Shown piece by piece: positions 4,731 through 64,000 of a stretch of 64,000 nucleotides of DNA. The translations under genes were made by a program, and so were the position numbers. Below the pieces are notes generated by a model that was not told the origin of the DNA, did no database searches, and saw only the letters and a program-made list of their open reading frames with translations. The stretch is from Escherichia coli (lineage in GTDB: Bacteria > Pseudomonadota > Gammaproteobacteria > Enterobacterales > Enterobacteriaceae), in the NCBI RefSeq assembly GCF_011045215.1, contig NZ_CP049201.1. One strand, given 5' to 3'. Each line of letters opens with the position of its first letter. The stretch's first letter is position 1.

Positions 4731-4842
4731 TGCCTGATGCCGATTCGTAGGCCGGATAAGGCGCTCGCGCCGCATCCGGCGATGGTGCACTGAAGCCTGA
4801 TGCGACGCTTACCGCGTCTTATCATGCCTACTGGGAGCACGC
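4731..4842. repeat. REP/BIME repetitive extragenic palindrome cluster
   Basis: Copies of GCCTGATGCGACGC...CGTCTTATCAGGCCTAC / GCCGGATAAGGCG...CGCATCCGGC motifs between ytfQ and ytfR. Confidence 0.8.
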
Positions 4843-4860
4843 TTTACACCGGGGGAAACC

Positions 4861-45182: not shown

Positions 45183-45267
45183 GCCGAAGTGGCGAAATCG
45201 GTAGACGCAGTTGATTCAAAATCAACCGTAGAAATACGTGCCGGTTCGAGTCCGGCCTTCGGCACCA
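45183..45267 (+). tRNA. leuX: tRNA-Leu (anticodon CAA)
   Basis: 85-nt sequence GCCGAAGTGGCGAAATCGGTAGACGCAGTTGATTCAAAATCAACC...GGTTCGAGTCCGGCCTTCGGCACCA; anticodon loop TTCAAAA; long variable arm; CCA end. Confidence 0.93.
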
Positions 45268-45456
45268 TAAAAAGCTTTTTTCAAGTCTACCAACGTCTAC
45301 TTTAGTCCATAAAAACAGTAAGTTAAGCAGAGTTTTGGCCTTTCTTAGTCTGTTCACGTCTACTTACTTCTATCCACATATACCAACGAATGATGGTATA
45401 ACTGGTGGTATCTTCGGTTCGATTGATTTTGATACCAACAGCGGAGGTATCAACTG

Positions 45457-46707
45457 ATGGCACTTACTGATATCAAAGTTAGGACTACCAAGCCCTCCGA
45501 CAAACCTTTCAAACTCACAGATGGGCAGGGTATGCACCTGCTGATCAACCCCAATGGTTCAAAATACTGGCGACTCCAATACCGTTTCGATGGCAAACAG
45601 AAAGTTTTAGCATTGGGTGTTTATCCAATGGTCTCTCTTGGTGAAGCTCGCAGGAAACGAGATGAGGCTAAAAAGTTGGTATCTGATGGTATCGACCCTT
45701 CCGAGAAGAAAAAGGCAGACAAGATCGAGCAGAGCGAAGCTCTTACTTTTGAATCTGTTGCCAGGGACTGGCATAAGGCTTGTAAAAGGAAATGGTCAGA
45801 TTCCCATAGCGAGAGAGTTCTAAAAAGCATGGAAGATGGTCTCTTTACTGCTCTTGGTAAAAGAAAAATATCCGAGCTTAATACCAGAGATCTTCTTGCC
45901 CCTATCAAGGCTGTTGAAGCTTCTGGGCGACTGGAAGTTGCTTCCCGCCTACAGCAAAGAACAACGGCAGTGATGCGATATGCTGTCCAGAACGGGCTGA
46001 TAGATTACAACCCTGCCCAGGAGATGGCAGGAGCTATTGCAGTAGCTAAAAGAGTCCACAGGCCAGCTTTGCCATTCGAACGATTCTCAGAACTTTTAGA
46101 ACGAATTGATAGTTTCAAGGGTAGAAAACTCACGAAGTTAGCCGTAAAGCTGACATTGCTCATTTTCATTCGTTCCAGTGAACTTAGGTTTGCTCGTTGG
46201 TCAGAGATAGATTTCGACAATGCCATGTGGACTATCCCTGGGGAACGTGAGCCATTGCCAGGGGTCAAACATTCTCATCGAGGCTCAAAAATGAAGACAC
46301 CACACCTCGTGCCGTTAAGTCGCCAGGCTATAGAACTCCTCAAAGCTATCAAAGAAATCAGCGGTGAATGTGAACTTGTATTCATTGGTGATCATGATTT
46401 TAGAAAGCCTATGAGTGAAAACACGGTAAACAAGGCTTTAAGGTCTATGGGCTACGACACTACGGTTGAAGTATGTGGACATGGTTTTCGTGCGATGGCA
46501 TGTAGTGCGTTGATCGAATCGGGAAAATGGTCAAGGGATGCTGTTGAACGGCAGATGAGCCACCAAGAGCGAAACTCCGTTCGTGCTGCCTACATTCATA
46601 AAGCAGAACACCTTGATGAAAGAAGGCTTATGTTGCAGTGGTGGGCTGATTACCTTAATGCCTTGAAAGATAGGTTTATCAGTCCCTTTGATTTTACAAC
46701 AAAGTAG
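45457..46707 (+). CDS. intB: P4-family tyrosine integrase (IntB-like) with N-terminal DUF4102-type domain
   Basis: 416 aa, MALTDIKVRTTKPSDKPFKLTDGQGMHLLINPNGSKYWRLQYRFDGKQK N-terminus typical of tRNA-associated island integrases; C-terminal HGFRAMA...R...Y catalytic region; lies 190 bp from the leuX 3' end. Confidence 0.9.
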   Translation: MALTDIKVRTTKPSDKPFKLTDGQGMHLLINPNGSKYWRLQYRFDGKQKVLALGVYPMVSLGEARRKRDEAKKLVSDGIDPSEKKKADKIEQSEALTFESVARDWHKACKRKWSDSHSERVLKSMEDGLFTALGKRKISELNTRDLLAPIKAVEASGRLEVASRLQQRTTAVMRYAVQNGLIDYNPAQEMAGAIAVAKRVHRPALPFERFSELLERIDSFKGRKLTKLAVKLTLLIFIRSSELRFARWSEIDFDNAMWTIPGEREPLPGVKHSHRGSKMKTPHLVPLSRQAIELLKAIKEISGECELVFIGDHDFRKPMSENTVNKALRSMGYDTTVEVCGHGFRAMACSALIESGKWSRDAVERQMSHQERNSVRAAYIHKAEHLDERRLMLQWWADYLNALKDRFISPFDFTTK

Positions 46708-46794: not shown

Positions 46795-47934
46795 ATGTCC
46801 ACAATTAACCCCGCAATTTTTTCTTTTTTCTCTGGTTCAGGATTTCTTGATCTTGGATTTGAAAAAAATGGTTATGAAGTGGTTTTCGTGAATGAATACC
46901 ATGCTCCGTTTATGGATGCATATAAACATTCGAGGAAAAAATTAAATATAGCACCACCTCGTTTTGGGTATGCAGAGTGCAGTATTGAAGATGTAGAACA
47001 TGAAAAAATTAAGTCTTCTATGCTTCAACTTAAAAATGAGGGGCGATTGACTGGATTTATTGGTGGTCCACCATGCCCGGATTTCTCTGTAGCGGGTAAA
47101 AATAAAGGTCGAGATGGTGAAAACGGTCGGCTTTCACAAAGCTATATTGATATCATTCTTGAAATGAAACCAGATTTCTTTCTTTTTGAGAATGTTAAAG
47201 GTCTATACCGTACCAGTAAACATAGGGAATTTTTTGACCATTTAAAAACTCAATTAGAATCGGTTGGTTATTGTTTGCATGAAAAACTAATAAATTCTAT
47301 TGAATATGGTGCTCCTCAAGATAGGCAACGAATCATATTGATTGGTTTCCTTGATGAAAAATATGCAAGCCAATTCAATTGGGGGCAAAGAGTCTACCCT
47401 GAAAGAACTGCATTTGAATATAAATGGCCGACGACAAACCAATTTTCAGAAAACACTTCTGTTATAAAACCAAAGGGTATCCCAGAAGAGTTAACAGTAG
47501 AGCATTGGTTCAAGAAAAACCAGGTTGATAATCATCCAAATGCAAAGCATGTATTCGCGGCAAGAGCAGGGCTTGCGAGGTTTTTGACTGTCGAAGAAGG
47601 GGATGATAGTAAAAAATCCTATAAAAGGTTACATAGATGGAGATTTTCACCAACTGCTGCTTACGGTAATAATGAGGTACATTTACATCCTTATAAACCA
47701 AGAAGAATTACTGTTGCCGAAGCATTAGCAATTCAGTCTTTACCAAAAGAATTTGAATTACCTGCTTATATGACTCTGTCTAATATGTTTAAAACTGTCG
47801 GTAACGGTGTACCCTACTTAGCAGCGGCCGGTATTGCCAAATCTATTATAGAGCATTTAGGAATCGAATATGAGAGTAACTGCGGCGAACTTAGCACAGG
47901 CGATTGCCAATCTACCAAGAAACACGCAGTTTAA
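46795..47934 (+). CDS. DNA (cytosine-5)-methyltransferase
   Basis: 379 aa with C5-MTase motifs: I FSGSGFLDLGFE (FxGxG), IV GGPPCPDFS (Pro-Cys), VI FLFENV, VIII QDRQR, X GNGVP near C-terminus; AT-rich. Confidence 0.85.
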   Translation: MSTINPAIFSFFSGSGFLDLGFEKNGYEVVFVNEYHAPFMDAYKHSRKKLNIAPPRFGYAECSIEDVEHEKIKSSMLQLKNEGRLTGFIGGPPCPDFSVAGKNKGRDGENGRLSQSYIDIILEMKPDFFLFENVKGLYRTSKHREFFDHLKTQLESVGYCLHEKLINSIEYGAPQDRQRIILIGFLDEKYASQFNWGQRVYPERTAFEYKWPTTNQFSENTSVIKPKGIPEELTVEHWFKKNQVDNHPNAKHVFAARAGLARFLTVEEGDDSKKSYKRLHRWRFSPTAAYGNNEVHLHPYKPRRITVAEALAIQSLPKEFELPAYMTLSNMFKTVGNGVPYLAAAGIAKSIIEHLGIEYESNCGELSTGDCQSTKKHAV

Positions 47935-48946
47935 TTATGTAAATGTGCGAAATTCGGGAAGAATCATTGTAACGAATGTTCAACTTCCCGAAGGCCCAAT
48001 AGAATTCAAAAGATTCGATCCAAAAAAGGGTGAGACACTGCATAGTTCTAAATCGGAAAGCATCTCCACACAAATGTTGTGGAGATTGGCTAATGCTTTA
48101 CAGGAAGATGTCCCTGTCAATTTGGATCGTATTTTTGGTGCAAGCTATAATACACGTGCTGTTCTCGAAAGCCTTTTGGCCCATACTCCTGAGTTTTATT
48201 GGTGTAAGCTTGATCGCCTTGAGGTAATGAACACTCAGAAAAATATTAAAAAAGGTCACAAGCACCTTATTTATAGACCAAATGACCCACATGAAAATGG
48301 TGTAGCAATAGAACATACTACTAATGTTATAATTTCTGAAATGAATTTAGATGTTGTCCATCAATCAGTTGATATAGAGACAATCTTACCTACTAAAGGA
48401 ATGACGATTGAGGAAAAAAGACGTCATGCACAAATTCAAATCTCATTAGTAAAAATAGGTCATTACTTAGGTTATCGGACATGGGTTGCAGCAAATGATC
48501 GTGGCCTCCAATATAATGGAAAATCTATAGCCCAAATGGATGGGGTCATAGATAATTTAAGAAATGAACAAGTGCTTCAATCATATGATAAAGCTATCAA
48601 AGAAGCTCGGCTTATAGATTGTATTTGGTTTCGAAATGGAAAATTAATGCCTGCAGTTATGGAGATTGAGCATAGCACTGGTATTAAAAGTGGTTTGGTA
48701 AGGATGAAACAATTTTATGATTATGCACCACAGTTAAAAAATATACGTTGGACCGTTGTGGCACCTGACGAATATAGAAATAAAGTTATAGAGTTTTCTA
48801 ATATGCCACAATTTAAAGAATTAGATACTCGATTCTTCCCCTATTCTGCTGTAGAGGAACTCTATTCATTATGTGCAAGAAGGAATCCTCAAGGAATTAC
48901 AGACGATTTCCTTGATGCATTCATGGAAAAGTGTGTGACACATTAA
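47870..48946 (+). CDS. Putative nuclease-like partner of the methyltransferase (candidate restriction endonuclease); function inferred
   Basis: 358-aa ORF; ATG with AGGA SD overlaps MTase 3' end by 65 nt (translational coupling); C-terminal D...E-x-E-x(6)-K-like stretch (LIDCIWF...VMEIEHSTGIK) compatible with a PD-(D/E)xK core. Confidence 0.45.
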   Translation: MRVTAANLAQAIANLPRNTQFNYVNVRNSGRIIVTNVQLPEGPIEFKRFDPKKGETLHSSKSESISTQMLWRLANALQEDVPVNLDRIFGASYNTRAVLESLLAHTPEFYWCKLDRLEVMNTQKNIKKGHKHLIYRPNDPHENGVAIEHTTNVIISEMNLDVVHQSVDIETILPTKGMTIEEKRRHAQIQISLVKIGHYLGYRTWVAANDRGLQYNGKSIAQMDGVIDNLRNEQVLQSYDKAIKEARLIDCIWFRNGKLMPAVMEIEHSTGIKSGLVRMKQFYDYAPQLKNIRWTVVAPDEYRNKVIEFSNMPQFKELDTRFFPYSAVEELYSLCARRNPQGITDDFLDAFMEKCVTH

Positions 48947-50893: not shown

Positions 50894-52156
50894 TTGAAAT
50901 ATAAAATAAAAAGATTGAAGAATAAAGATGGTATCAGAAGTTGCATTATTATTAATGAGAGCAACGGATTACCCTTGGTTTATTCTAACTTATATATGAG
51001 TGTTATTTCACGAACAAATAGCTATTCATTTTCAACAATGGAAGCAATAGCAAATGCTTTGCTTTTATTTGAAAGATATAATGCTTACATGAATGTGGAT
51101 GTTTTTGATATGGTAAATCCTGACATCGAAAAACTTGTCTCGAACAAAGGATATTTATTCGGGTTAATGAATGCCCTTTCTTACAGAAACGACTTAGAGA
51201 ATGTTACAAGCATTCTTAAAGAACAACATGTCTCTAAAAGAACCCTTTATTTCAAGATAATGACAATTGAAAATTACGTCAAATGGTTTTTTGATAACAT
51301 TGCTATCAATAATATTGATTCTTCTCGTTATGAAGCAATCAGTCGAGCATTTGATTTTATAAAGCCAAGAATAGAGAACGGAAAGAATTACAATATTGAA
51401 AGCGAAAGCAAATCATTGACAAATGAGCAAGTTACAACTTTGACTGATATGGTAAGTGTTAAATCTAAGATTAATCCATTTTCGGAGCATGTAAGGTTTC
51501 GAAATAATCTAATAATTAAAATTTTATTAGAGACAGGTATTAGGGGAGGGGAACTACTTAATATTAAGTTGGTTGATTTTGACTATGTCCACAAAAGTCT
51601 ATGCATAGTAAGAAGGCCAGATGATCAAAACGAACCACGATTAAGGCAACCATTGGTTAAAACTTTAGAAAGAAAAATACCATTGAGTATAGAATTGACT
51701 GAGTTAATACAGAATTATATTAGTGATTTCAGAGGTAAGCAGTGTCATGCAGGGGAGCATGACTATCTGCTTGTTACTCATAGCAGTAAAGGTCAATTAG
51801 GTCATGCATTAACTATTTCAGGTTATCAGAAAATTTTCGAACAAATTAGGAAAAATAGTAATGTTTTGAGCGATATTGTGGGGCATTCGCTAAGACATAC
51901 TTGGAATGTGAAATTCTCAGAAATGATGCTCATGAATTCGAACTCTCAGGAATATATTACTTATGAGAAAGTAAGAAATTATCTTATGGGGTGGAAAAAG
52001 AATAGTACAACCTCAGATATCTATAACCAAGCATTTATAGCACAAGAAAGCCGAAAAATAATGGCTGTTATTAATCCACTCAAAAACATAGTAGAGGACA
52101 AATCCAATGTTTCAAACTCTAAGAAAGCTACAAGAAAGTCAATATTCGGTTTTTGA
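50894..52156 (+). CDS. Tyrosine recombinase 1 of a three-recombinase operon
   Basis: 420-aa ORF (TTG at 50894; first ATG at 50996); conserved ETGIRGGELLNIKLVDF (box I Arg), HSLRHTW (HxxR) and ...SDIYNQ (Tyr) catalytic elements. Confidence 0.75.
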   Translation: MKYKIKRLKNKDGIRSCIIINESNGLPLVYSNLYMSVISRTNSYSFSTMEAIANALLLFERYNAYMNVDVFDMVNPDIEKLVSNKGYLFGLMNALSYRNDLENVTSILKEQHVSKRTLYFKIMTIENYVKWFFDNIAINNIDSSRYEAISRAFDFIKPRIENGKNYNIESESKSLTNEQVTTLTDMVSVKSKINPFSEHVRFRNNLIIKILLETGIRGGELLNIKLVDFDYVHKSLCIVRRPDDQNEPRLRQPLVKTLERKIPLSIELTELIQNYISDFRGKQCHAGEHDYLLVTHSSKGQLGHALTISGYQKIFEQIRKNSNVLSDIVGHSLRHTWNVKFSEMMLMNSNSQEYITYEKVRNYLMGWKKNSTTSDIYNQAFIAQESRKIMAVINPLKNIVEDKSNVSNSKKATRKSIFGF

Positions 52157-53432
52157 AACCAAGGATGGTAATTTCAAAGTGAACTTTTCTTATTCCAAGT
52201 GGAAGATAAGTGAAAGTATAACATTGAACATTGATTCTTTAAGAGTGGTCATCAGTGCATATATACCTATCAAAACCACTTTGGCATATTTCGCTATAAA
52301 TTATAGTGCCAGTTATACTAAGAAAATGTTTTATGCAGTAAAGCATTACATTAAGGCCTGTAATACGAATGATAGCTTGTTTTCTAAAGATTGCATAAAG
52401 TATTACTATAAAGTTGTGAGCTCATTAGATTACACACATGCAGAGACAGTCAAATATTTTTTTATGAAGATGAGTGGTCTTTACCCATCTTTGTTTTCGG
52501 CAGAAGCAATCATATTTTTAGAAAATATTAAAGTTAAAAAAACAAATGCAAACAAGTCTATAAAGACACATGATTATAAAAAAGGTCCCTTTAGTGACTC
52601 GCAATTAAAGGTAATTATAGATTCTGTAGCGATAGCTTATAAGGAAGAAAAGGTAAGTCTGTCAAACTATCTGCTAACCTTCCTTGTTGCATATTCCGGG
52701 CGGCGACCTATGCAAATATCTCAACTTGAAGCTGGTGATCTCTTTGCTTTTAATGGAGAGTACTTTCTCAATATCCCAAGAATTAAACAACGAAATGGAT
52801 ATAGAAAAGAGTTTAGAAAATTACAAATTCCAGAAGAGCTTTTTAGCCAATTGACATATCTCGTTGAAGCTGTGAATTCGCTGGTCAGTGACACATTAAA
52901 AATCGATTTAAGTGAAAAACAAAAGAGAAAACTACCAATTTTTATAAACACATATCCATTCAAAAAAGGATGTGTTGAGCTAAACATGATTGAAAGTGGT
53001 GGATTAAAACTTAACCCCTATGCCATAACACTAAAAATAAGGAACACTATAAATCGTTCAATAAATGAATATCAAGCCTATCTGGGGTGTATAAATTCGC
53101 GCAGATTTAGATATTCATTAGGCACTAAGGTTGCACAATTGGGTTATAGTCCTTCACTGATAGCAAATGTTTTGGACCATTCTTCAATCAATTCTGTTAT
53201 GAGTTATATAGAAAATACAGCGGAAAATGGCAAGAGAATTAATGAAGCTGTAAATGAACTAATGAAGCCACTGGCTAACAAATTTATTGAGGGAAAAGAG
53301 CTTCAGAAAGAGTTAGATTCTTTGAAGCATTTGATAGAAGAATACTGCGGTGGATATAAAACTAACTCTTTTGATAATACAGCAATATCGTTAGTAACTA
53401 ATTCTATCGACGATATGATCAATAGCATTTAA
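52107..53432 (+). CDS. Tyrosine recombinase 2 (divergent catalytic motifs)
   Basis: 441 aa; SD AGAGGA before ATG; AYSGRRPMQISQLEAGDL (box I), RRFRYSLG...LDHSSINSVMSYIE (box II-like with Tyr); overlaps upstream gene by 50 nt. Confidence 0.7.
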   Translation: MFQTLRKLQESQYSVFETKDGNFKVNFSYSKWKISESITLNIDSLRVVISAYIPIKTTLAYFAINYSASYTKKMFYAVKHYIKACNTNDSLFSKDCIKYYYKVVSSLDYTHAETVKYFFMKMSGLYPSLFSAEAIIFLENIKVKKTNANKSIKTHDYKKGPFSDSQLKVIIDSVAIAYKEEKVSLSNYLLTFLVAYSGRRPMQISQLEAGDLFAFNGEYFLNIPRIKQRNGYRKEFRKLQIPEELFSQLTYLVEAVNSLVSDTLKIDLSEKQKRKLPIFINTYPFKKGCVELNMIESGGLKLNPYAITLKIRNTINRSINEYQAYLGCINSRRFRYSLGTKVAQLGYSPSLIANVLDHSSINSVMSYIENTAENGKRINEAVNELMKPLANKFIEGKELQKELDSLKHLIEEYCGGYKTNSFDNTAISLVTNSIDDMINSI

Positions 53433-53447
53433 AAGAAGGATAAAGTG

Positions 53448-55052
53448 ATGAAAGAAATCCATGATAAAATGATTAATAACTTCATTATCGCTAATAAGGC
53501 CCATGCGAAAAATTTTGGAAATTTTGAGTGGGATAATTCAAGTTGGGGAGGCGGAATTACATTTTTTAGCGGAATCAAGGTTAGAATGGGGAACAAGAAT
53601 AAGAAATTAATGAATTATAACATTGCAGAGTTCGCAAAAGCATATGTATGGCATGAGTGCTTTCATGATTTATCTGTAGCTTTCAGAGTGCTGAGATTAT
53701 TTAGGATATTAGAAATTGCCATAGGTAAAACAAATAAAGAAGTTAAGATTTCAAGTATAGATCATAAAGTATTAGATGAAGTTATGACTATTGTTCAAGA
53801 AAATTTTGCAATATCCACTTCTTATAAAATATATTTAGATCTTAGGGTATTATGTTCTTTTATGTCTAAGAACGAAATGTTGCCAGAATCCATTACACGA
53901 TGGTCATATCCATTTAAGGCATATGATGCTTACACAAATAGCACAATGGATTCGATGGGAAATTTATCCAATCAGAAAAAACTTCCTGATGAAAAGGCTA
54001 TAGATTTTATTGGTAAAATATTTAGCTCTAATCCAGTTAATGAAAGGGATATATTTACATCTTCTATTTTTGCATTGCTCTTATGTGCTCCATCTCGAAT
54101 TAGTGAAATTATGCTTTTAGAAGAGGACTGTGAAGTTATAGTTGAAGATAGTAATGGCATATCAAGATATGGTTTGCGATTTCTTTCTCTGAAGGGCTTT
54201 GGATACAATACCAAATGGATTCCAGACTGTATGGTTTCTGTAGCTTCAAAGGCTATCATGCGATTGAAAAAACTTACAAGGAATGCAAGGGTTGTTTCTC
54301 GGTTAATAAAAGCAGGGGAAATTAATTTATACGAGTCATTAAACAAAAGTGCGTTTGATTGTTTAACAATTGAAGATCTCCACAAACTTGGCTTTGTTAT
54401 AAATCAATTAAATATCTCCCAAGAAAATCTAAAATTCTTGGCTAAGATAAAACATGGTACAGTCAGTGTAAAAGCATTTTGGATTTATATAGAGCGAAAG
54501 AATGTTAATTCTGAAAATATTAATGCTAATTTATGCTCCATAAATCATAATTTATTGGACTCTATCAAGGGTGCTGATATTTTTACAACAATTAAGGCAT
54601 CTTCAAAGTATTTTAGAGCGGATTTTCGCACCGATAATATGAATAACATATTTCATAGGAATATACATTTTAACTGTGATGGTTCTGTTTTAATTTTCCG
54701 CAGCCATCAAATTAGACATTTACTTAATACTATAGCTCAACGAAGCGTATTGTCAGAGATACAAATTGCCCAATGGTCTGGGAGAAGGAGTGTTAAGCAG
54801 AATTCAGTATATGATCATATGTCTCACAACGAGTTATCAGAACTATCAAGGAAACTATTGAACGGAAACACCTACGAAGAAACAAAAATTTCAGCATCTT
54901 CATTTAATGAACAATCGATTATTATGAATTTGATTAAAGATAAATTTGAAAAACTAGAATTAAAAATCCAAAATTCAGATCCAAGAAAAAGAAAATATAT
55001 TCTGGAAAAAATTAAAGATTTAAGATTGGAAATTGAATACATATTAATGTGA
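53448..55052 (+). CDS. Tyrosine recombinase 3
   Basis: About 534 aa (GTG-ATG at 53445/53448); CAPSRISEIMLLEEDC (box I), HQIRHLLNTIAQ (HxxRH), ...SVYDHMSHNE (Tyr). Confidence 0.7.
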   Translation: MKEIHDKMINNFIIANKAHAKNFGNFEWDNSSWGGGITFFSGIKVRMGNKNKKLMNYNIAEFAKAYVWHECFHDLSVAFRVLRLFRILEIAIGKTNKEVKISSIDHKVLDEVMTIVQENFAISTSYKIYLDLRVLCSFMSKNEMLPESITRWSYPFKAYDAYTNSTMDSMGNLSNQKKLPDEKAIDFIGKIFSSNPVNERDIFTSSIFALLLCAPSRISEIMLLEEDCEVIVEDSNGISRYGLRFLSLKGFGYNTKWIPDCMVSVASKAIMRLKKLTRNARVVSRLIKAGEINLYESLNKSAFDCLTIEDLHKLGFVINQLNISQENLKFLAKIKHGTVSVKAFWIYIERKNVNSENINANLCSINHNLLDSIKGADIFTTIKASSKYFRADFRTDNMNNIFHRNIHFNCDGSVLIFRSHQIRHLLNTIAQRSVLSEIQIAQWSGRRSVKQNSVYDHMSHNELSELSRKLLNGNTYEETKISASSFNEQSIIMNLIKDKFEKLELKIQNSDPRKRKYILEKIKDLRLEIEYILM

Positions 55053-56727: not shown

Positions 56728-57006
56728 TTAACTTTTATGTGTGAAAACGGCTCTGTGGGCAAATTTCTTGCGTAAATAAAATCTTAAAGAAATTGCTGAG
56801 GCAAAATAGATAACGACAGTTAATATAAAACTTTGACTGATAGCGAATATGAAGAAAGCAATTACTAACAGCACAATTCCTATGAGTAAAGCTAACCAGG
56901 CCGAAGGTTCACCATAATTTATTGTTGCGTGACAGCCGATACAGACACGAACTCCGAACGGACTCTCTTTGAAGCAGAACGGGCACTTAATGGTCTCTTT
57001 ACTCAT
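56728..57006 (-). CDS. Small membrane protein with N-terminal zinc-ribbon
   Basis: 92 aa; CPFC...CIGCH then one hydrophobic helix. Confidence 0.5.
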   Translation of the reverse strand: MSKETIKCPFCFKESPFGVRVCIGCHATINYGEPSAWLALLIGIVLLVIAFFIFAISQSFILTVVIYFASAISLRFYLRKKFAHRAVFTHKS

Positions 57007-57259
57007 ACAAACTCCGTTTATTCAACAGGTTCCTGATACTACAAATTGTTTAAAAATCATCAGGTTCTTTTCAGGGATTCTCGATGAATAATTATCTTTA
57101 GTAAAATCACTTGTACCGATCGATGTTTGAATCATGATAGGTAAAAACTATCATAACTAGATTATCGATCTGTATTAACGATCAATAATTTCTTGACATA
57201 ATATAAATTAGTTACTGTATAGTTAAGAGTGTTTGAGAATAATCAATACAAGTAATTGT

Positions 57260-58405
57260 CTATAAACGAATTTTTATCGCCTTGTTTAAAGGTTTCATTG
57301 CGTAGATATTTGAGAAGGTCGTGTGTGTTTTGTGAAGAATGGTCTTACCAAAGCTTCTCAGAAGCTCGATGTAATGCTTTATGGAAGCAAGCCACTCTAC
57401 GAATCTGAGATGCTTTTGCCGTTGTACTGCATTTTTTTGAAGAATCTTTCCTACGATTTCGTTTCGTTTGTCTTCTCTAAGCCGTAATTCCAGTTCTGCA
57501 ATTTTTTCAACGATACTTTCCTTTCTCTCAGTGGTTTTCAACACTGTTGCAGGAGCAGGAGCAGCAGGTTGGTCTTTTGTCGATATGTCGCTTCGTAGAG
57601 CTTCTAAGTGGTCGGGGTTGTAGTTAAGCCGATTACTGAGATTTGCCCAGGAGTAGCTCTTGCCCAATTGTGAAGCTTTGAAAGCTATGCCTGTGTATTC
57701 GAAAGAGAAGCCGTTCATTTTACCGGTAGAGGCAATATTGGCCTTCCAAGATACTTCAGCTTCTTCCAGCCTCTTGATAAAAGTTAGAAGGTCCGGCTTA
57801 TCAGATAAACTTTTATCAAGTATCTGCTGCAGAGCTTCTCTTGGTGAAAGCACCCCGGTTCGTTCCGATAGCATTTTCTCATTACGGGACACTCTCTTCC
57901 GCTTCGGTTGTGCTTGCGAGGGGGGAGATGCAGTTTTGGTCACTGTCAGGCCATGAGCGATTTCGAGTTTACTGATGATCTGTGTGCTGATGAGGTTTTC
58001 GTTCCTACCCAAGTAGAGCTTCCCACCATTGAGATCTATGCGACTTGCGATAATGTGTATGTGCTGGCCATCGTCGTCATGAAGCACATAGCAACGAAGG
58101 TGAGTATCCCTGAACCCCATCCTCTTCATGTAGTCATCTGCGATAATGGACCACTGTTCATTCGTTAGTGTTTCACCGTCGGGTAAGCGAAGTGAGTTGT
58201 GCCAAACGGGTTTTGCGACATCTAGGCGAAGATGCTTGGTGCTATCGAATTCAGCGATCATTTCAACGGCTGAATCACTTAACATGTTCCCGCCAATGAC
58301 GACTGGATCGCTTTTGTGGTGTGCTCCCGATTGTAATACATAACGAACAACACCAGCGAAGCTCTTACCCCTCTTGATCTTCCGCATACCCTTCACGAGG
58401 GACAC
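57260..58405 (-). CDS. Mobilisation relaxase (MobA/VirD2-like nuclease domain)
   Basis: 381 aa; three-histidine relaxase motif HDDDGQHIHIIASRIDL; immediately downstream of a MobC-like gene. Confidence 0.75.
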   Translation of the reverse strand: MSLVKGMRKIKRGKSFAGVVRYVLQSGAHHKSDPVVIGGNMLSDSAVEMIAEFDSTKHLRLDVAKPVWHNSLRLPDGETLTNEQWSIIADDYMKRMGFRDTHLRCYVLHDDDGQHIHIIASRIDLNGGKLYLGRNENLISTQIISKLEIAHGLTVTKTASPPSQAQPKRKRVSRNEKMLSERTGVLSPREALQQILDKSLSDKPDLLTFIKRLEEAEVSWKANIASTGKMNGFSFEYTGIAFKASQLGKSYSWANLSNRLNYNPDHLEALRSDISTKDQPAAPAPATVLKTTERKESIVEKIAELELRLREDKRNEIVGKILQKNAVQRQKHLRFVEWLASIKHYIELLRSFGKTILHKTHTTFSNIYAMKPLNKAIKIRL

Positions 58406-58739
58406 TCCAAAAATCTGTTCTTAACAAGTTGTGACGAAGCTCTTCAAGTTGTCGCTTCACAGCGAAAAGCTCTGTATGAGTAAGCTGGCTATCTTTACTC
58501 TTACTGTCGATATGGAGAGCAATACGATTCAACTTTTGTGATATGTCAGACAATTTTTTCCAGGCTTCAGTATTAATTGTCGGTACTACTGGTGGCAGGT
58601 TTTGCAGAAATGACATGCGGAGCCATTCACCTTTACTTTTATTACCTCGTTTTATATTTAAAATCTGTAATTCATTGTTGTTGAGTCGAACACTTATACA
58701 ATGTATTCTAATTCTGTCATCTAATCTTAATTTAGCCAT
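58365..58739 (-). CDS. MobC-family relaxosome accessory protein
   Basis: 124 aa; overlaps relaxase start by 41 nt; sequence pattern typical of MobC. Confidence 0.65.
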   Translation of the reverse strand: MAKLRLDDRIRIHCISVRLNNNELQILNIKRGNKSKGEWLRMSFLQNLPPVVPTINTEAWKKLSDISQKLNRIALHIDSKSKDSQLTHTELFAVKRQLEELRHNLLRTDFWSVPREGYAEDQEG

Positions 58740-58885
58740 ATAAGTTCCTTTTATATGATTTAATATGATTAATGATAGTTATTATTTCCCATTAGTCAAT
58801 AGCAGAACGGTTTTGATATATGGGTTTAATGTGCTAAAAATAAATCTCTCTGAAATAAAGTATTCAAAGATTCCCTAAATTAAAA
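58740..58885 (-). promoter_or_regulatory. Candidate oriT / mob promoter region (inferred from position only)
   Basis: AT-rich 146-bp gap upstream of mobC with short direct repeats (ATATGATT TAAT ATGATT AATGAT). Confidence 0.3.
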
Positions 58886-60049
58886 TTAAGGATGATCTAT
58901 TGAAACAAACTTTTGACTAAACTCCAGCCATCTTGCATTATCAACATCCTTCACAAAAGCAATCAGACCTGCGACATGATTGTAAAAGCCAATTGGAGAG
59001 TCAAATTTTTCATGTCTTGCAACTTCTGAGAGACCAAATTTTTTTATTGAGTAAAGGTGGCGTTCAATACGTTTATAAGTTTGTTTAGATAATCGAGGGA
59101 CATTGCCATCAACAAGTAATCCTAAAACTATTTTTTTTGAACCAGGTCCAGCTACTCTTATTTTGCTTACGTTTTCTTTGAAATGGTGCTTACGAATGAT
59201 GCTGATAATGTTATTTTGTATTTTTCCAACCGAAACACCGTCGGGTAGAGTACCACCGCAGGATAATGTTATATCATCAGCATATCGAGTATAAGTGAAG
59301 CCATATTTATTAGCATATTCAGATAGAGAAATATCTAACTTTACAGTGGCTAAATTACTAAGCATTGGGCTACTCGGTGCCCCTTGAGGTAGCACTCCTA
59401 ACGGCCATGGTTCTGATATGTCCCAAAAAAGGCTCTTCTCTTTATTTTGTCCGTAAAGCTTATATTCCTTAGTTGAGTGCTTAGGAACAGAAATTAGAGA
59501 TTGTAAATGTTGTGGTAAACGTATAGTTGTGCATAGCCTTGATAGTTCAAATGCTATTAATGGCCGATATCCAGCATTTTTAAAAACCATATAAACATCA
59601 GATTCATTTATTGAATAAAAGAAATCGGAAATGTCGAATTGGAAGAGCCATTTAGCACCACAATGCTGTTCTGCACATTTTCTGATGCCACCATTAGGAT
59701 GGAAAGCAAAAGAAGTATTATGGGGAACTAACTTTTTTAATATTTCACTATTGATGAAATGCTGTACTTTAAATATCTCGCCAGTTACAGCATGAATATG
59801 GCGTCTTCCACCTGAACGTTTTTTTATAGCAAACATGCGATAATTTGCTGATTCACGGCGGCGTGATACAGTGGATCGTAGCAAGCGATAATCAACACCA
59901 GTAATTTTTGAAAGATGGCGTAATGTAAAAATTACAGGGAGATTATTTTTCTTCAGATTACTTGCATAATTTCTTAAGTTTAGAGCCTGTGTCTTCCCTA
60001 AGGATGACTCTGCATTTTGATAAAGTTGGTGTGCTGACCAGATTTCCAT
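58886..60049 (-). CDS. Retron-type reverse transcriptase
   Basis: 387 aa; RT motifs FQFDISDFF (A), LPQGAPSSP (B'), YTRYADDITLS (C); by-eye alignment to remembered retron Ec86 RT (QGAPSSP.LANL...YTRYADDLTLS, IDLEDFFPS); C-terminal VLGLLV in place of the retron VTG. Confidence 0.85.
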   Translation of the reverse strand: MEIWSAHQLYQNAESSLGKTQALNLRNYASNLKKNNLPVIFTLRHLSKITGVDYRLLRSTVSRRRESANYRMFAIKKRSGGRRHIHAVTGEIFKVQHFINSEILKKLVPHNTSFAFHPNGGIRKCAEQHCGAKWLFQFDISDFFYSINESDVYMVFKNAGYRPLIAFELSRLCTTIRLPQHLQSLISVPKHSTKEYKLYGQNKEKSLFWDISEPWPLGVLPQGAPSSPMLSNLATVKLDISLSEYANKYGFTYTRYADDITLSCGGTLPDGVSVGKIQNNIISIIRKHHFKENVSKIRVAGPGSKKIVLGLLVDGNVPRLSKQTYKRIERHLYSIKKFGLSEVARHEKFDSPIGFYNHVAGLIAFVKDVDNARWLEFSQKFVSIDHP

Positions 60050-60237
60050 TCACCTATCCTTTGAGCCCAGGGGGCCATCAGTGTCATACATTTTCCGAGT
60101 CCTCGATGGCCGTTAATGTATGACATTGAAGGGCGGCGTAGCCGCCTTTGCGTCAGATCTTTCCAGAGATGTTTCTCCAACATCCCCATCCGTTGTAACA
60201 AAAGCCACAACAGATTCTGTCAAACAAGCGGTGAACT
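60050..60237 (-). ncRNA. Candidate structured ncRNA (possible retron msr-msd-like template) in the PRTase-RT spacer
   Basis: 188-nt non-coding spacer directly upstream of the RT; 15-bp stem (60078-60092 pairs with 60115-60129, one G-U) with 22-nt loop; adjacent GGCGGC-GTA-GCCGCC hairpin (60132-60146). Confidence 0.4.
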
Positions 60238-61458
60238 TCACTCATCATTGTTTAACGGCTGAACGGAGTGCTGATCAGCACACCAAGACTCTGGAATGTA
60301 AAGACCAAAATCCCATACACTATCGTTTTTAACATGCCTAGAATTTACAAGTATGTCAAGTCCGAATTTAGATAATCGTTTTTGAGTTGTCAATAGTCCT
60401 AATGTCTCTGCATATATGAGTAGTTTTTCTACATACGAACAATCAACATTCAAACGTAAGGCAATGCTTTTGTTATCTCTGACACCTCTTTTTATAAGTT
60501 TTAGTAAATTTATAATTTCGGGAGATAAAGATGAATGGGGGGAAGTGTTATGCTTTGTTCCATTTTCTAACAAGGCAAGCAGCCATCCTGGAATTGCTCT
60601 ATCAGGCATTAGTCCTTGCCATTTTTTATTAGAAAACCATAGTATTCCAGGAAGGTTATTAGGGACGCTATGATAAAAAATTATATTAGATAAAACATTA
60701 CCATAGCCAAGACGAGCCCATGGAGGAATTTTGGTTTGATTTTTACAAAGATTGATTATTTCATTATACTGCTCACCCCACCGAGTTTCTAACCAATTTT
60801 CATTATATACGATGTTACTTATGAAATTGATTTTTTCAGATTTTCTATATTTTCTTACTCCATGGTCTGAGCCGCGAATAGTATTGATTATTCTATTTTC
60901 AGAACCTAGTGTTCTGGCGAAAGAAATTAAAGTTAATCTTACTAGTCCTAAACTCCACCAACTTAAAAAGGTAGGGTTATCGAGCATGGCATTAATAAAT
61001 CCGGATACTCTATCACCACTACCAATCGAATCATCAATAAGTAAAAAATCGTTGACTTTAGATTTTTTCAGATCATTGAGTGATGGATGATCTAAAAACA
61101 TAGTTTTATTAGACCGCACAAGGTTTGAAATAATTGAATATACTAAGTCTTCGCTACCTTGCGAATGACCTGGTCTATTAACAACATCACCATTAAGGTC
61201 CCATAATACTTGTTTGTCTGGATCTAATTTGCGAACTGAATAAAGGGCATAATTTTTATTTTTTGGTAAATCAGAAATGCTCTTTTGAAGCCATATGGTA
61301 AACTCATCTCTACTTACAAAAGTTAACTTGCTCAAGATGTTTTTTGCAATCGCTTTTTGGCTGCTATTAAATTGCATAAGCCATTGAGCTATTTCCTGAG
61401 AGGATTCAATTTTTTCTACTGAAAGTATTTTAAATTTAGGTTTGTCTCTTGTTTTCAT
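60238..61458 (-). CDS. Phosphoribosyltransferase-like protein (putative RT-associated effector)
   Basis: 406 aa; PRPP-binding-like motif KVNDFLLIDDSIGSGDR (hydrophobic strand, DD, small-Gly); encoded immediately upstream of and co-directional with the RT. Confidence 0.55.
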   Translation of the reverse strand: MKTRDKPKFKILSVEKIESSQEIAQWLMQFNSSQKAIAKNILSKLTFVSRDEFTIWLQKSISDLPKNKNYALYSVRKLDPDKQVLWDLNGDVVNRPGHSQGSEDLVYSIISNLVRSNKTMFLDHPSLNDLKKSKVNDFLLIDDSIGSGDRVSGFINAMLDNPTFLSWWSLGLVRLTLISFARTLGSENRIINTIRGSDHGVRKYRKSEKINFISNIVYNENWLETRWGEQYNEIINLCKNQTKIPPWARLGYGNVLSNIIFYHSVPNNLPGILWFSNKKWQGLMPDRAIPGWLLALLENGTKHNTSPHSSLSPEIINLLKLIKRGVRDNKSIALRLNVDCSYVEKLLIYAETLGLLTTQKRLSKFGLDILVNSRHVKNDSVWDFGLYIPESWCADQHSVQPLNNDE

Positions 61459-61693
61459 TTTTTTTAACCACTGTCAGGGCAATTGTTATTTCATAACATA
61501 AAAAGTAATGATGGTAAAGGTTTTGTTGTATCATTAACCTTCTTTATAACTGAGTAGACTAAGTTTAGTACTCTTATACGAAGCTAAATGAGCTAAATAT
61601 TAAATACTAAAATGTAATGGCGGATATTTTTCAACCGAAGGGCGAAAAACAAGGGAACGCAAAGAAGCGGAGCTTCGATGAGTTAGCCCTTGC

Positions 61694-62296
61694 TTATTCA
61701 TATGATTTGTATTTCTTTTCATCTACTAAATTTATTATGGACGATGAGGTTTTATATATCAACTTTACATTGTGTAAAGATATATTGTGTTTGCTAATAA
61801 AATATAAAAGATCCAATAGCATCTGTTCTTGCCGTTCTTGTGGAAACTCTAATTTTACGATTGGAGTAAATTCAACAATAAAACCACTATTCAACAGTAG
61901 TTTTATGTAGCTAAATGAGTTTGGCGTAACTGTTTTGATTTTTATTATTTTATTAGTAATTAGATGCTTATGGTTTATAATAATGTGAGGGTTGAGCAGT
62001 GCCATATCATATGACATGAATGTTAAACCATGACTATCTATTATGTTCAAGTCGATACCAAGTTGTATAAACATATCGATTATTGCTTTGCTATGTATCC
62101 AGTTATAAAATAAAGGTGTCCTTCCATAGTTATCTAAATGATTTAGGTCGGCTCCTGCAGCTAAAAGAGATGTTGTAAGTAAATAGTCATTAGAATAAAA
62201 TAATGGTGTACGACCACAATTATCCTTTAAGTTTATTAAACCATTGTCTATGAATATATTAGATAAATTATTGTGCATTTTACCTCCTTTTATCAT
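61694..62296 (-). CDS. Ankyrin-repeat protein
   Basis: 200-aa ORF; two clear ankyrin repeats (GRTPLFYS...LLAAGADLNHLDNYGRTPLFY) plus degenerate third (DSHGLTFMS). Confidence 0.6.
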   Translation of the reverse strand: MIKGGKMHNNLSNIFIDNGLINLKDNCGRTPLFYSNDYLLTTSLLAAGADLNHLDNYGRTPLFYNWIHSKAIIDMFIQLGIDLNIIDSHGLTFMSYDMALLNPHIIINHKHLITNKIIKIKTVTPNSFSYIKLLLNSGFIVEFTPIVKLEFPQERQEQMLLDLLYFISKHNISLHNVKLIYKTSSSIINLVDEKKYKSYE

Positions 62297-62339
62297 TATG
62301 TATATTAAAAAAAGGAGGTTGTCAATATTTAGAGGTTAG

Positions 62340-62588
62340 TTAACCACCAAATGTTTTTTTCTTAGGTTGTGGGGGCTCTGCATTAAGTATGATAGTTTTA
62401 ATATTTGCATTTATTTGATTGATATTATCAGTCAATATATTAATAACTGATAATGCTTCTACAGGTGTGCTAAATGATGATTCTAAAAACACGCCTGAGC
62501 CTTTCAAAAATATATGGTAAGTGAGTATGCCATTTTCTTCATTTTCATATATATCATAAAGTTCATTTACTGTTTCGTACAATTTCAT
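62340..62588 (-). CDS. Hypothetical small protein (82 aa)
   Basis: ORF between the ATPase-partner pair and the ankyrin gene. Confidence 0.45.
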   Translation of the reverse strand: MKLYETVNELYDIYENEENGILTYHIFLKGSGVFLESSFSTPVEALSVINILTDNINQINANIKTIILNAEPPQPKKKTFGG

Positions 62589-62643
62589 TATTATACTCCT
62601 TGATAATGATGGTTTATTTCAATGGGCTCGCGATATCACTACC

Positions 62644-63519
62644 TTATAAATGATCTCCAATGTGAGCAATAGCGATTTGTGCCGGTCTATCAGGAATTCT
62701 ATTAAAGAAGCCAAAGTATATTCTATTGTAGTAATAAGTTCCTTTTCGATTAGTATTGTCCATGTATTCAAGTTTATAATGGAATTCACAATTCACGTCT
62801 TTATAGATACAATCACCCACTTTAAAATCACGTTTTAATTCCCCTATGGCTCGTTTATTTTTGCCTCCACCTTCTGGTGTTACAAGATAAGGTAACGATG
62901 AATTCATAATTCTAATGTTATGTTGTGAGTCATTAGGTATAATTGTATAGTTATTAACAAAATAAAGAAATTCAGTGATGCTTTTCAAAAAATTTTCATA
63001 TCCACCTTCAATTTTCCTAATAAAATTAAAGGTTTGTGGTGGGTTATCCAAAAAAATGACATTCTTGAAAATGTTTTTAATATTGTCAGCATATTCATCA
63101 CAATCCGATGGGAATTCATCAAGGATTTTCTTAGAAAGATCAATTATTTCACTTTCACTAGAAACTGTATTATCCTTTTTTAAAGGTATGTCTGGAGATT
63201 GATAGGCACAGAGTTTTCTTTCGGCAAGTATCGATGGGGATGTATTGATGATATTTAGAAGTTCATTGCAGCCTATTTCATCCAATAAACTAATTTGGCC
63301 TATTTTATAATACTCATTAACAAGGCCACCGTAATCAGGGTTTGTTGAAAATAATTTAGTGACAAATTTTCCATCAAATTCATTGGAGCGAAGAAACTTT
63401 ATAAAATCTGAATCCACTCTCTCTACAAGTGCTTTAAGATCTTTAATCTGGTTAAAAATCTTAATTTGTTCTTCTTCAAGAGAAAAACTATCTATGAACA
63501 AGCAAACACCTGCTTTCAT
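62644..63519 (-). CDS. Hypothetical protein, partner of upstream ATPase (possible degenerate HNH-like nuclease)
   Basis: 291 aa; starts 9 nt after the ATPase gene stop; C-terminal C-x6-C-x2-H-x9-N-x10-N segment (DCIYKDVNCEFHYKLEYMDNTNRKGTYYYNRIY) loosely HNH-like. Confidence 0.5.
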   Translation of the reverse strand: MKAGVCLFIDSFSLEEEQIKIFNQIKDLKALVERVDSDFIKFLRSNEFDGKFVTKLFSTNPDYGGLVNEYYKIGQISLLDEIGCNELLNIINTSPSILAERKLCAYQSPDIPLKKDNTVSSESEIIDLSKKILDEFPSDCDEYADNIKNIFKNVIFLDNPPQTFNFIRKIEGGYENFLKSITEFLYFVNNYTIIPNDSQHNIRIMNSSLPYLVTPEGGGKNKRAIGELKRDFKVGDCIYKDVNCEFHYKLEYMDNTNRKGTYYYNRIYFGFFNRIPDRPAQIAIAHIGDHL

Positions 63520-63528
63520 GAAATCCCC

Positions 63529-64000
63529 TTAATTTTCAATATCAGGAGTATTAAATGATCCTGTCATAATGGTATACATATCAATTGATTGCTGGTCAAA
63601 GAATCCTTTCGGCCAACTAGAAAGTTTTCCATCTTTGCCAATAGATATCTTTTCTGCAGTAGATTCATTATTCTCATGTGAAATATAAAATAACGAAATT
63701 AGCTCAGGTGAAAAGTCAGGAGATGTTCTTGCTACGACACGGATTCCGTTGAGAAGGTGATCGCTATGAGTTTCTATGAATACCTGTACTCCCGCTTGAG
63801 CAGTGTAAGCTATTAATCTACCCATATAGCTTTGTCCTCTAGGGTGCAAATGGGCTTCCGGGTTTTCTAAAACTACTAATTCGCCCGGTTTTGCTAAAAG
63901 TAATGCTGAAACAATACTCAAAGCATAGCTATAACCAAAACCAATGTTTTTGGGTTTAGTTTGTTTTCCTGACTCAGCCTGTATTGTGTTATAAGCAATG
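63529..64000 (-). CDS. ABC/AAA15-type ATPase, C-terminal part (DUF3696-like); 5' end beyond window
   Basis: Frame open to window edge (ORF-track 'M' is TTG); ...GFGYSYALSIVSALLLAKPGELVVLENPEAHLHP (signature/Walker B/D-loop) and FIETHSDHLL (H-loop). Confidence 0.7.
   Translation of the reverse strand, partial: IAYNTIQAESGKQTKPKNIGFGYSYALSIVSALLLAKPGELVVLENPEAHLHPRGQSYMGRLIAYTAQAGVQVFIETHSDHLLNGIRVVARTSPDFSPELISLFYISHENNESTAEKISIGKDGKLSSWPKGFFDQQSIDMYTIMTGSFNTPDIEN

Follow-up and report, generated by a model that had tools for sequence, protein, structure and literature searches.

A Menshen-type nsnA-nsnB-nsnC locus in a leuX-integrated defence island of Escherichia coli

Menshen has been validated as an anti-phage system on a prototype from Solibacillus silvestris StLB046, the only one for which phage resistance has been shown (PMC12065111 and PMC10952713, relaying Millman et al. 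2022). AlphaFold 3 models place its NsnB-NsnC pair in one architectural class with PtuA-PtuB and AriA-AriB, and the DUF3696 tail of NsnB is predicted to clamp the N-domain of NsnC (PMC12065111). A GxG signature and an EN Walker B motif are described in the same paper as deviations specific to NsnB. [quoted passage not shown]

Several described systems come close to this design. Loci named 'ptuXYZ' (bioRxiv 10.1101/2025.01.28.635273), which were reported independently, have the same build, in which a DUF262 protein is accompanied by a P-loop ATPase like PtuA and by a protein with PIN-like and YoeB/HigB-like BECR parts. By this description the name appears to be another one for Menshen-type loci, although the preprint regards the DUF262 protein as a nuclease and not as a sensor. 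In Septu, as in Menshen, the role predicted for the ABC-type ATPase oligomer is an asymmetric clamping and gating of a nuclease effector, and PARIS is similar in that a DUF3696-type ABC ATPase restrains an effector until triggered. GmrSD, SspE and BrxU share with NsnA the DUF262 (GmrSD_N) NTPase/sensor domain.

A three-gene operon across the window edge

The window (the whole stretch of 64,000 nucleotides that was analysed) ends inside an ATPase gene. An earlier note on this DNA took the truncated gene, together with a 291-aa partner 9 nt downstream, for a two-gene defence system. We conclude, with a probability of about 0.88, that the two are the last genes of an intact three-gene Menshen operon, nsnA-nsnB-nsnC, on the minus strand; the Menshen identity of the locus is itself very likely. 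Menshen being already described, the locus is an ordinary member of it and a new two-gene system is ruled out.

The part of the operon beyond position 64000, namely nsnA and the first 227 codons (681 nt) of nsnB, was read from a public contig (L003) that is 100% identical to window positions 57549-64000 over 6452 nt and runs on past the edge. It supplies nsnA (638 aa) and the full ATPase gene for which the earlier note had called (nsnB, 383 aa), of which 156 aa are translated in the window up to the stop at 63529-63531. Since this 5' part was taken from the identical contig, its presence in the exact source genome is very strongly implied; nsnB would begin there at ~64680, and nsnA would occupy ~64683-66599 on the minus strand. 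The same three proteins are consecutive in one E. coli genome in GenBank (QIF15126, QIF15125 and QIF15124). Spacing is tight: 2 nt separate nsnA from nsnB, and between nsnB and nsnC the minus strand reads GAA AAT TAA ggggatttc ATG, so this second gap is exactly 9 nt, as the earlier note had it. Gene order and close packing are those of the S. silvestris prototype. That prototype is Type I, whereas the operon found here is Type II, because its NsnA carries an N-terminal extension of ~270 aa.

The earlier note would have given up its reading if the pair were not co-conserved. The trio of GmrSD_N protein, DUF3696 ATPase and ~300-aa NsnC was found in 7 of 7 contexts: the window with L003, E. coli IAI1, Salmonella, V. 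cholerae, Shewanella (where NsnB is split), L014 and L015, two of the loci being metagenomic. The DUF262 gene lies 2 nt 5' of the ATPase gene in every locus examined; it is this gene, here just past the window edge, that overturns the two-gene reading. The proposal of a DUF3696 ABC ATPase with a co-transcribed effector as an anti-phage operon is, on the other hand, right. The family matches are strong, and nsnB and nsnC are not chance open reading frames. A promoter and terminator scan of 61400-64000 gave nothing informative above the shuffled background. The GenBank labels 'DUF262', 'DUF3696/AAA ATPase' and 'hypothetical' can be replaced by nsnA, nsnB and nsnC, and the locus should stay out of counts of new two-gene systems.

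The chromosome is of Escherichia coli type, and the operon belongs to a defence island that is integrated at tRNA-Leu (leuX). The AT-rich, island-like setting beside a retron-like module was correctly recognised before: from ~46000 up to its end the window has a GC content of 32-39%, compared with ~52% upstream, and a type III-A retron occupies 58886-61458 (reverse transcriptase 5.6e-160, PRTase 2e-93). The Rfam scan of 57000-64000 returned no retron RNA and no other family, and the plasmid collection gave no match. The island is mobilisable, with a relaxase and recombinases. Neighbours considered as partners were dropped. None of the Salmonella, Vibrio, Shewanella and IAI1 loci has the 82-aa and ankyrin-repeat genes that follow nsnC here, and functional coupling of Menshen to the retron finds no support, the same retron-plus-relaxase module carrying different cargo in E. 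coli 300444.

Anatomy of the three proteins

Table 1. Positions of the nsnB and nsnC features in the window
Feature	Position	Strand	Basis or remark
nsnB 3' part (aa 228-383 of 383 + stop)	63529..64000	-	translation; PADLOC NsnB; Menshen ABC ATPase
NsnB signature-like motif GFGYS, aa 247-251	63928..63942	-	sequence; GxG replaces canonical SGG
NsnB Walker B LVVLEN, aa 268-273	63862..63879	-	sequence; EN dyad instead of DE
NsnB H-loop ETHSDH, aa 303-308	63757..63774	-	sequence
NsnB DUF3696 C-terminal helical tail, aa 325-368	63577..63708	-	Pfam DUF3696 5.1e-11
nsnB-nsnC spacer	63520..63528	-	9 nt; minus-strand sequence TAAggggatttcATG; AAGGGG ribosome-binding site overlaps nsnB stop
nsnC, 291 aa + stop, Menshen effector	62644..63519	-	PADLOC; homologues; AlphaFold2
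NsnC N-terminal PIN-like (inPIN-type) domain, ~aa 1-110	63190..63519	-	hypervariable part of NsnC
NsnC helical middle region, ~aa 111-207	62899..63189	-	AlphaFold2 secondary structure; mean identity to homologues 42%
NsnC C-terminal BECR-like (RelE/YoeB/YafQ/HigB fold) putative RNase domain, aa 208-291	62647..62898	-	

NsnA, read from L003, matches the PADLOC NsnA model at 2.4e-115 and contains GmrSD_N (DUF262) at aa 277-409 (Pfam). Its motifs QRKDRIW (aa 282-288), DGLQR (aa 324-328) and FHRIN (aa 391-395) agree with the Menshen set QRxxxW, DGxQR and FxxxN, except that motif I holds one extra residue (QRx4W against QRx3W). As in the described Menshen proteins, a DUF262/ParB-like domain is present and DUF1524 is absent (Pfam); NsnA is therefore no GmrSD-type type IV enzyme, which would have DUF1524 fused to it, and the nuclease-type effector is here a separate, ATPase-gated protein. 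The N-terminal extension has no Pfam match; within it, 125 aa bearing the motif GSGSSRNQPETIFANLPYIQHFKY form a conserved domain.

The ATPase matches PADLOC NsnB at 1.8e-56 as the fragment in the window and at 1.2e-110 as the full-length protein, in which Pfam finds AAA_15/AAA_21/AAA_23 and DUF3696. Walker A (GNNSVGKS, aa 30-37) falls outside the window; the signature, Walker B, H-loop and DUF3696 tail that the earlier note had read in the truncated gene are all inside it (Table 1). The EN Walker B and GxG signature agree with the NsnB-specific deviations of PMC12065111, and with the DUF3696 tail they make this protein like the NsnB of described Menshen systems. A housekeeping ABC or RecF protein, which would have spoken against the defence reading, is rejected: matches to ABC, RecF and SMC families are at P-loop level and far under the curated cutoffs (NCBIfam RecF 33 bits against 172).

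Weaker PADLOC matches go to AriA (2e-13 for the fragment; 7.8e-30 for the full-length protein, at partial coverage) and to GajA, in the ATPase part only. The kinship to OLD/Gabija that had been suggested does not hold, NsnB (383 aa) ending in DUF3696 with no Toprim domain found by Pfam. The likeness to Septu and PARIS holds as an analogy of ATPase-effector mechanism only and not as family membership. For Septu, NCBIfam PtuA (NF041760) scores 31 bits, in the P-loop region alone, against a cutoff of 500; moreover, the PtuB HNH partner is missing, a DUF262 gene is added and the effector fold is of RNase type. For PARIS, AriA is the second-best PADLOC match, but the NsnB model is ahead of it by 80 orders of magnitude, the operon has three genes and there is no AriB/DUF4435/Toprim partner.

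NsnC matches PADLOC PDLC03915 at 6.3e-94 (aa 1-291 against model positions 1-301 of 301) and has 39 full-length homologues. The AlphaFold2 model (pLDDT 88, pTM 0.86) shows a predicted two-domain fold, PIN-like and BECR-like, which is of nuclease type; the earlier note had named the lack of such a fold as a point against its reading. The architecture is the published one for NsnC, in which the N-domain resembles an inactive PIN and the C-domain has a BECR fold with invariant residues of the His/Arg/His type. In the hypervariable N-domain, C6, F12, F39, F42, S45 and Y71 are the few residues that are conserved. The HNH-like Cys/His/Asn cluster pointed out before is real and conserved (NCEFHYK, aa 243-249: N243, E245, H247 and K249 invariant in the 39 homologues, C244 in at least 90%), but an HNH domain is not: Pfam finds neither HNH nor DUF4435 in any of the 39 members. 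Neither does Pfam match NsnC to RelE, YoeB, Gp49 or Toprim, nor PADLOC to PtuB or AriB.

Twelve polar or charged residues of the C-domain are invariant, the His/Arg/His set among them, and E245, H247, R266, H286 and H290 are candidate catalytic residues. Aligned by hhalign with E. coli YoeB, whose sequence was verified against PDB 2a6q, the NsnC family reaches a probability of 2%, which amounts to no sequence-level relationship, and a residue-by-residue catalytic mapping therefore stays putative. The NsnC profile has no match at E<=1 among PDB sequences, and Foldseek of the model against the PDB yields nothing at E<=0.001, with weak PIN matches only (1v8o, probability 0.75). NsnC is no member of the RelE/YoeB/YafQ/HigB toxins: the similarity is one of fold, an antitoxin-like gene is not adjacent, and, unlike in those toxins, the domain forms one protein with a helical linker and a PIN-like domain.

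Proposed mechanism and competing readings

The analysis shows directly which three genes these are, how they are ordered and packed, that they are co-conserved across genera, that the catalytic-type motifs are intact and that NsnC has a two-domain fold. From PMC12065111 and the anatomy described above we infer a chain of sensor, transducer and RNase, to which we would give roughly even odds. NsnA, to which a ParB-like DUF262 NTPase domain, a DNA-binding domain and a sensor domain at the N-terminus are ascribed, would sense incoming phage DNA. An NsnB oligomer, in a complex with NsnC that is predicted to be 4:2, would grip the PIN-like N-domain of NsnC between paired DUF3696 tails. The NsnA signal, together with ATP binding or hydrolysis by NsnB, might then release or activate NsnC, whose RelE/YoeB-like C-domain would cut RNA, halting translation and aborting the infection.

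What NsnA might sense is given a more specific answer by a reading that we consider unlikely, though worth setting out. It takes the Menshen clade with long NsnA as restriction-modification-like: C5-cytosine methylation would be the self signal, NsnA would sense unmethylated sites, and in E. coli the methylase at 46795-47934 would protect the host. The general idea is raised in PMC12065111. In 4 of 4 loci examined outside the enterobacterial island (one each assigned to V. cholerae and Shewanella, two on unassigned contigs), nsnA is immediately preceded by a C5 methylase, and no restriction enzyme lies close by. Among themselves these methylases share 56-69% identity, and with the island methylase of the window 51-58%, rising to 73-90% in alignment columns 301-360, close to the C-terminus. 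Furthermore, the island methylase is carried by 12 genomes out of 5426, and the 7 complete E. coli genomes with nsnAB all belong to these 12, each having the orthologue at the opposite end of that leuX island. Shared island ancestry would nonetheless explain the co-occurrence in E. coli, where the IAI1 layout is the same, and next to the window methylase stands a Type II restriction enzyme of its own (REase_II 2e-124). No methylase is adjacent in the Salmonella and L002 loci, nor is there one among the three genes of the validated operon (PMC12065111). If the reading were true, Menshen would be restriction-modification-like with an ATPase-gated RNase, and not a DNase, as its restriction arm, and a natural swap of nsnC alleles would retune effector recognition. 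The island methylase being orthologous to those at Menshen operons of other genera, methylation dependence is testable.

The roles of NsnA and NsnC might also be exchanged, NsnA being the nuclease (ParB/Srx-like DUF262, as suggested for 'PtuX' in 10.1101/2025.01.28.635273, where it is called a putative nuclease) and NsnC an adaptor or specificity subunit. The hypervariable N-domain of NsnC is what one would expect of a specificity module. Nevertheless this exchange seems improbable: NsnA lacks DUF1524, which serves GmrSD and SspE as nuclease domain, and the 12 invariant residues of the NsnC C-domain fit catalysis better than scaffolding.

It might be argued from the toxin-type fold of this C-domain, and from the mobilisable island with its relaxase and recombinases, that the operon is an addiction or stabilisation module, with NsnC as a RelE-like toxin checked by NsnB and defence secondary or absent. 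We regard this as very improbable. The Menshen family is validated as anti-phage and a small labile antitoxin gene is absent. In addition, the C-domain is found almost only in the third gene of nsnABC (every checked context was Menshen); 71 of 93 representatives measure 270-325 aa, and nearly all among the matches listed have the domain at the extreme C-terminus.

Finally, a self-contained Septu/PARIS-like system of an AAA_15 ATPase and an HNH-like nuclease, for which the AriA and GajA matches and the shared architectural class of PMC12065111 might be invoked, can be given hardly any weight against the constant DUF262 gene, the PtuA score and an NsnC devoid of PtuB, AriB, HNH and DUF4435 matches.

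To return to the Menshen operon with its proposed sensor, transducer and RNase: for the question of how Menshen works, this island of E. coli is a ready-made natural experiment. Near-identical NsnA and NsnB occur with strongly different NsnC alleles, which makes the swapping of effector or specificity testable in a model host. Compared with E. coli IAI1, NsnA is 99.4% and NsnB 98.7% identical, against 46.8% for NsnC; this divergence, restricted to NsnC, fits the known polymorphism of that protein. At the DNA level, the identity between the window and IAI1 drops sharply at the nsnB stop and nsnC start.

The operon at the window edge

The two genes at the end of the window are part of an ordinary, intact member of the described Menshen system, cut by the window edge. 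Menshen is already known, so this is not a new system; its operon, nsnA-nsnB-nsnC, encodes a DUF262 protein, an ABC ATPase and a 291-aa partner. The earlier note correctly described the sequence as a gene pair with ATPase motifs and a 9-nt gap, lying in an AT-rich region with a retron-like module nearby; both genes are on the minus strand. The nsnB fragment encodes a signature-like motif (GFGYS), Walker B (LVVLEN) and an H-loop (ETHSDH), and after them a tail that ends with SSWPKGFFDQ. Around the nsnB stop and nsnC start the minus strand is TAAggggatttcATG: exactly 9 nt separate the two genes, and the nsnB stop codon is overlapped by a ribosome-binding site, AAGGGG. With PADLOC the fragment is matched by NsnB at 1.8e-56 (against 2e-13 for AriA and 4e-10 for GajA, the next defence ATPases). 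The 291-aa protein is matched over its full length by one NsnC model (6.3e-94) and partially by two others (one via the N-terminal 97 residues only, the other via 114-291 only).

Features at the window edge and in the surrounding island (window coordinates)
Feature	Position	Strand	Details
tRNA-Leu(CAA) gene	45183-45267		
Tyrosine integrase	45457-46707		follows tRNA-Leu(CAA)
Type II restriction-modification pair	46795-48946		PADLOC MTase_II 1e-163 (C5 methylase, 46795-47934), overlapping REase_II 2e-124
Three consecutive large ORFs (420, 441, 535 aa)	50894-55052		first two tyrosine recombinases
MobA/P-type relaxase (381 aa) and overlapping 124-aa MobC-like gene	57260-58739		
Type III-A retron	58886-61458		reverse transcriptase 5.6e-160, PRTase effector 2e-93 (PADLOC)
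nsnC	ATG at 63519, end 62644	minus	ORF, 291 aa
nsnB, 3' part	TAA stop at 63529-63531; open at window edge	minus	156 residues translated

Searching for exact copies of the 291-aa protein yielded six contigs, including one that continues past position 64000 (L003) and is 100% identical to window positions 57549-64000 (6452 nt). Here NsnB is complete (383 aa) and a 638-aa GmrSD_N gene lies 2 nt upstream, which overturns the proposal of a two-gene system. PADLOC identifies the full-length proteins as NsnA (2.4e-115) and NsnB (1.2e-110), and in window-equivalent coordinates the operon would run from 66599 down to 62644. Pfam places GmrSD_N (DUF262) at 277-409 of NsnA, without DUF1524, and AAA_15/AAA_21/AAA_23 plus DUF3696 (at 325-368) on NsnB; NsnC matches no Pfam family. 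NsnA carries QRKDRIW, DGLQR and FHRIN. In NsnB the Walker A motif is GNNSVGKS (with K36), the signature is GxG, Walker B has an EN dyad, and the H-loop is present. The EN dyad and GxG signature, which NsnB here has in common with Menshen NsnB, are NsnB-specific departures from canonical ABC ATPases (PMC12065111). In GenBank the same three proteins, identical in sequence, follow one another (QIF15126, QIF15125 and QIF15124) on a single E. coli chromosome, where they are labelled only DUF262, AAA/DUF3696 and hypothetical.

The N-terminal domain of NsnA (aa 1-125; L003 6921-7300) has a strongly conserved motif, GSGSSRNQPETIFANLPYIQHFKY..KKH, and no Pfam match. It is also found in 235-aa proteins (P0091 and P0092) with unrelated C-termini.

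NsnC and conservation of the trio

In the published NsnC an inactive PIN-like N-domain is joined to a BECR RNase C-domain that has a His-Arg-His set (PMC12065111); the window protein reproduces this architecture, which also agrees with that of the independently described PtuZ, its apparent counterpart in the ptuXYZ operon (10.1101/2025.01.28.635273). We aligned the window NsnC with 38 cluster representatives (31-57% identical; 39 sequences in all) from Enterobacterales, Vibrio, Shewanella and Thalassotalea. On average the homologues share 29% of residues with the window protein at aa 1-110, 42% at aa 111-210 and 64% at aa 211-291, and the invariant polar or charged residues are confined to the C-terminal third (E216, R230, N243, E245, H247, K249, D254, N265, R266, Y268, H286 and H290). 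No HNH signal turned up anywhere in NsnC, for which the earlier note had suggested a weak HNH-like cluster. Foldseek against PDB gave nothing significant for NsnC, and hhalign of the NsnC family against E. coli YoeB (YoeB sequence checked against PDB 2a6q) gave no sequence-level relationship: the C-domain fold is RelE-like, yet the domain is not a RelE-family member at the sequence level.

A C-domain profile searched against 1.84 billion representative proteins (E<=0.001) found 93 proteins, 71 of them 270-325 aa long; in nearly all of those listed the domain occupies the very C-terminal end. Among these 71 the window C-domain is found in 70, the middle region in 19 and the N-domain in only 6 (phmmer E<1e-3). 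These counts indicate that the C-domain is essentially NsnC-specific and the N-domain hypervariable, the latter as already published (PMC12065111).

Around NsnC homologues the trio recurs as a GmrSD_N protein (629-661 aa), an AAA_15/DUF3696 ATPase (371-384 aa) and NsnC (292-316 aa). It is present in Salmonella (NsnC 56% identical), V. cholerae (40%) and Shewanella (38%), and at two metagenomic loci where NsnC has only the C-domain in common. In Shewanella nsnB is split into two ORFs of 158 and 216 aa (L012, the Shewanella locus, 4840-5997); a frameshift has probably inactivated this copy.

Between the retron and nsnC (61694-62588) lie a 200-aa ankyrin-repeat gene and an 82-aa gene. PADLOC, NCBIfam and PHROGs assign neither product with confidence; the 200-aa protein shows weak, sub-threshold ankyrin-type matches only. 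Both genes accompany the window nsnC allele in 6/6 identical-element contigs and are absent from other Menshen loci. Not being conserved with nsnC, they were rejected as system components.

Related systems and possible mechanism

Every testable defining feature of Menshen is present at this locus. The Septu/PARIS analogy of the earlier note holds insofar as NsnB-NsnC, like PtuA-PtuB and AriA-AriB, would pair an effector with an ATPase that gates it; family membership fails, since the PtuA score of 31 bits falls short of the cutoff (500) and HNH is lacking (Septu), and there is no DUF4435 or Toprim partner (PARIS). OLD/Gabija lacks its fused Toprim domain here, and GmrSD its DUF1524.

The Menshen prototype protects against phage, and resistance is lost when the DUF262 gene is mutated or deleted (PMC10952713). 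A 2025 preprint describes higher-order Menshen complexes; for the OLD-nuclease group, to which it assigned Menshen, it reports that model substrates were not cut in vitro. Directly established here are the identities of the genes, their order and spacing, the intact motifs, the two-domain fold and co-conservation. Combined with the published work (PMC12065111), this anatomy suggests that NsnA (ParB-like NTPase, DNA-binding and extra N-terminal domains) would sense phage DNA, and that NsnB would assemble as a tetrameric ABC ATPase, gripping the NsnC N-domain with its paired DUF3696 tails. ATP binding or hydrolysis might then release or activate NsnC, whose BECR domain would cut RNA and abort the infection. 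What the locus still offers is a tractable model, in E. coli, for studying how Menshen works.

Island, nsnC allele and neighbouring cargo

From ~52% upstream, GC content drops at ~46000 to 32-39% and stays in that range as far as the window end. Together with the tRNA gene and integrase (45183-46707), this drop marks where a leuX-type genomic island begins on the left; the island extends beyond the window edge. In E. coli IAI1 this island occupies the same tRNA-Leu site, and the layout of its left end is the same (ahr, tRNA-Leu, integrase, methylase and onward). NsnA and NsnB are 99.4% and 98.7% identical to their IAI1 counterparts, against only 46.8% for NsnC. At the nucleotide level identity is ~100% through nsnB, 93% at 63621-63562, 73% at 63561-63502 and ~55-60% across the remaining nsnC, which places the recombination junction at the nsnB stop/nsnC start. 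The downstream cargo differs too: IAI1 carries an Abi-family gene, the window the 82-aa gene, ankyrin-repeat gene and retron. The nsnC difference is a local case of known NsnC polymorphism (PMC12065111).

Menshen often adjoins methylases (PMC12065111). At four loci (V. cholerae, Shewanella and the two on unassigned contigs) the gene immediately preceding nsnA encodes a C5 DNA methylase, and none of the four has a restriction enzyme nearby. These methylases are 56-69% identical to one another; full-length comparison gives 51-58% identity to the window methylase (73-90% over alignment columns 301-360 near the C-terminus), which sits at the other end of the island from Menshen. Among 5426 complete E. 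coli genomes nsnAB occurs in 7 and the methylase/restriction-enzyme pair in 12, which include 7/7 of the former. We regard this co-occurrence as a lead rather than evidence, because shared island ancestry can explain it.

The three consecutive ORFs, also present in IAI1, look like a recombinase-trio mobile element within the island; the third matches no family. The island is probably mobilisable, and its relaxase module has 81-83% DNA identity to the IAI1 copy, with wholly different cargo between this module and nsnC.

In the interval from the PRTase start to the ankyrin-repeat gene (~61627-61705), ~70-80 nt match unannotated DNA of several other E. coli genomes at 95-99% identity. No Rfam family was found at this stretch, which may be the retron msr/msd non-coding RNA. 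In E. coli 300444 a similar order (relaxase, 124-aa gene, 387-aa reverse transcriptase, PRTase-like protein) stands beside different cargo (caspase, TIR, cyclase), so that the retron appears to be an independent cassette, uncoupled from Menshen.
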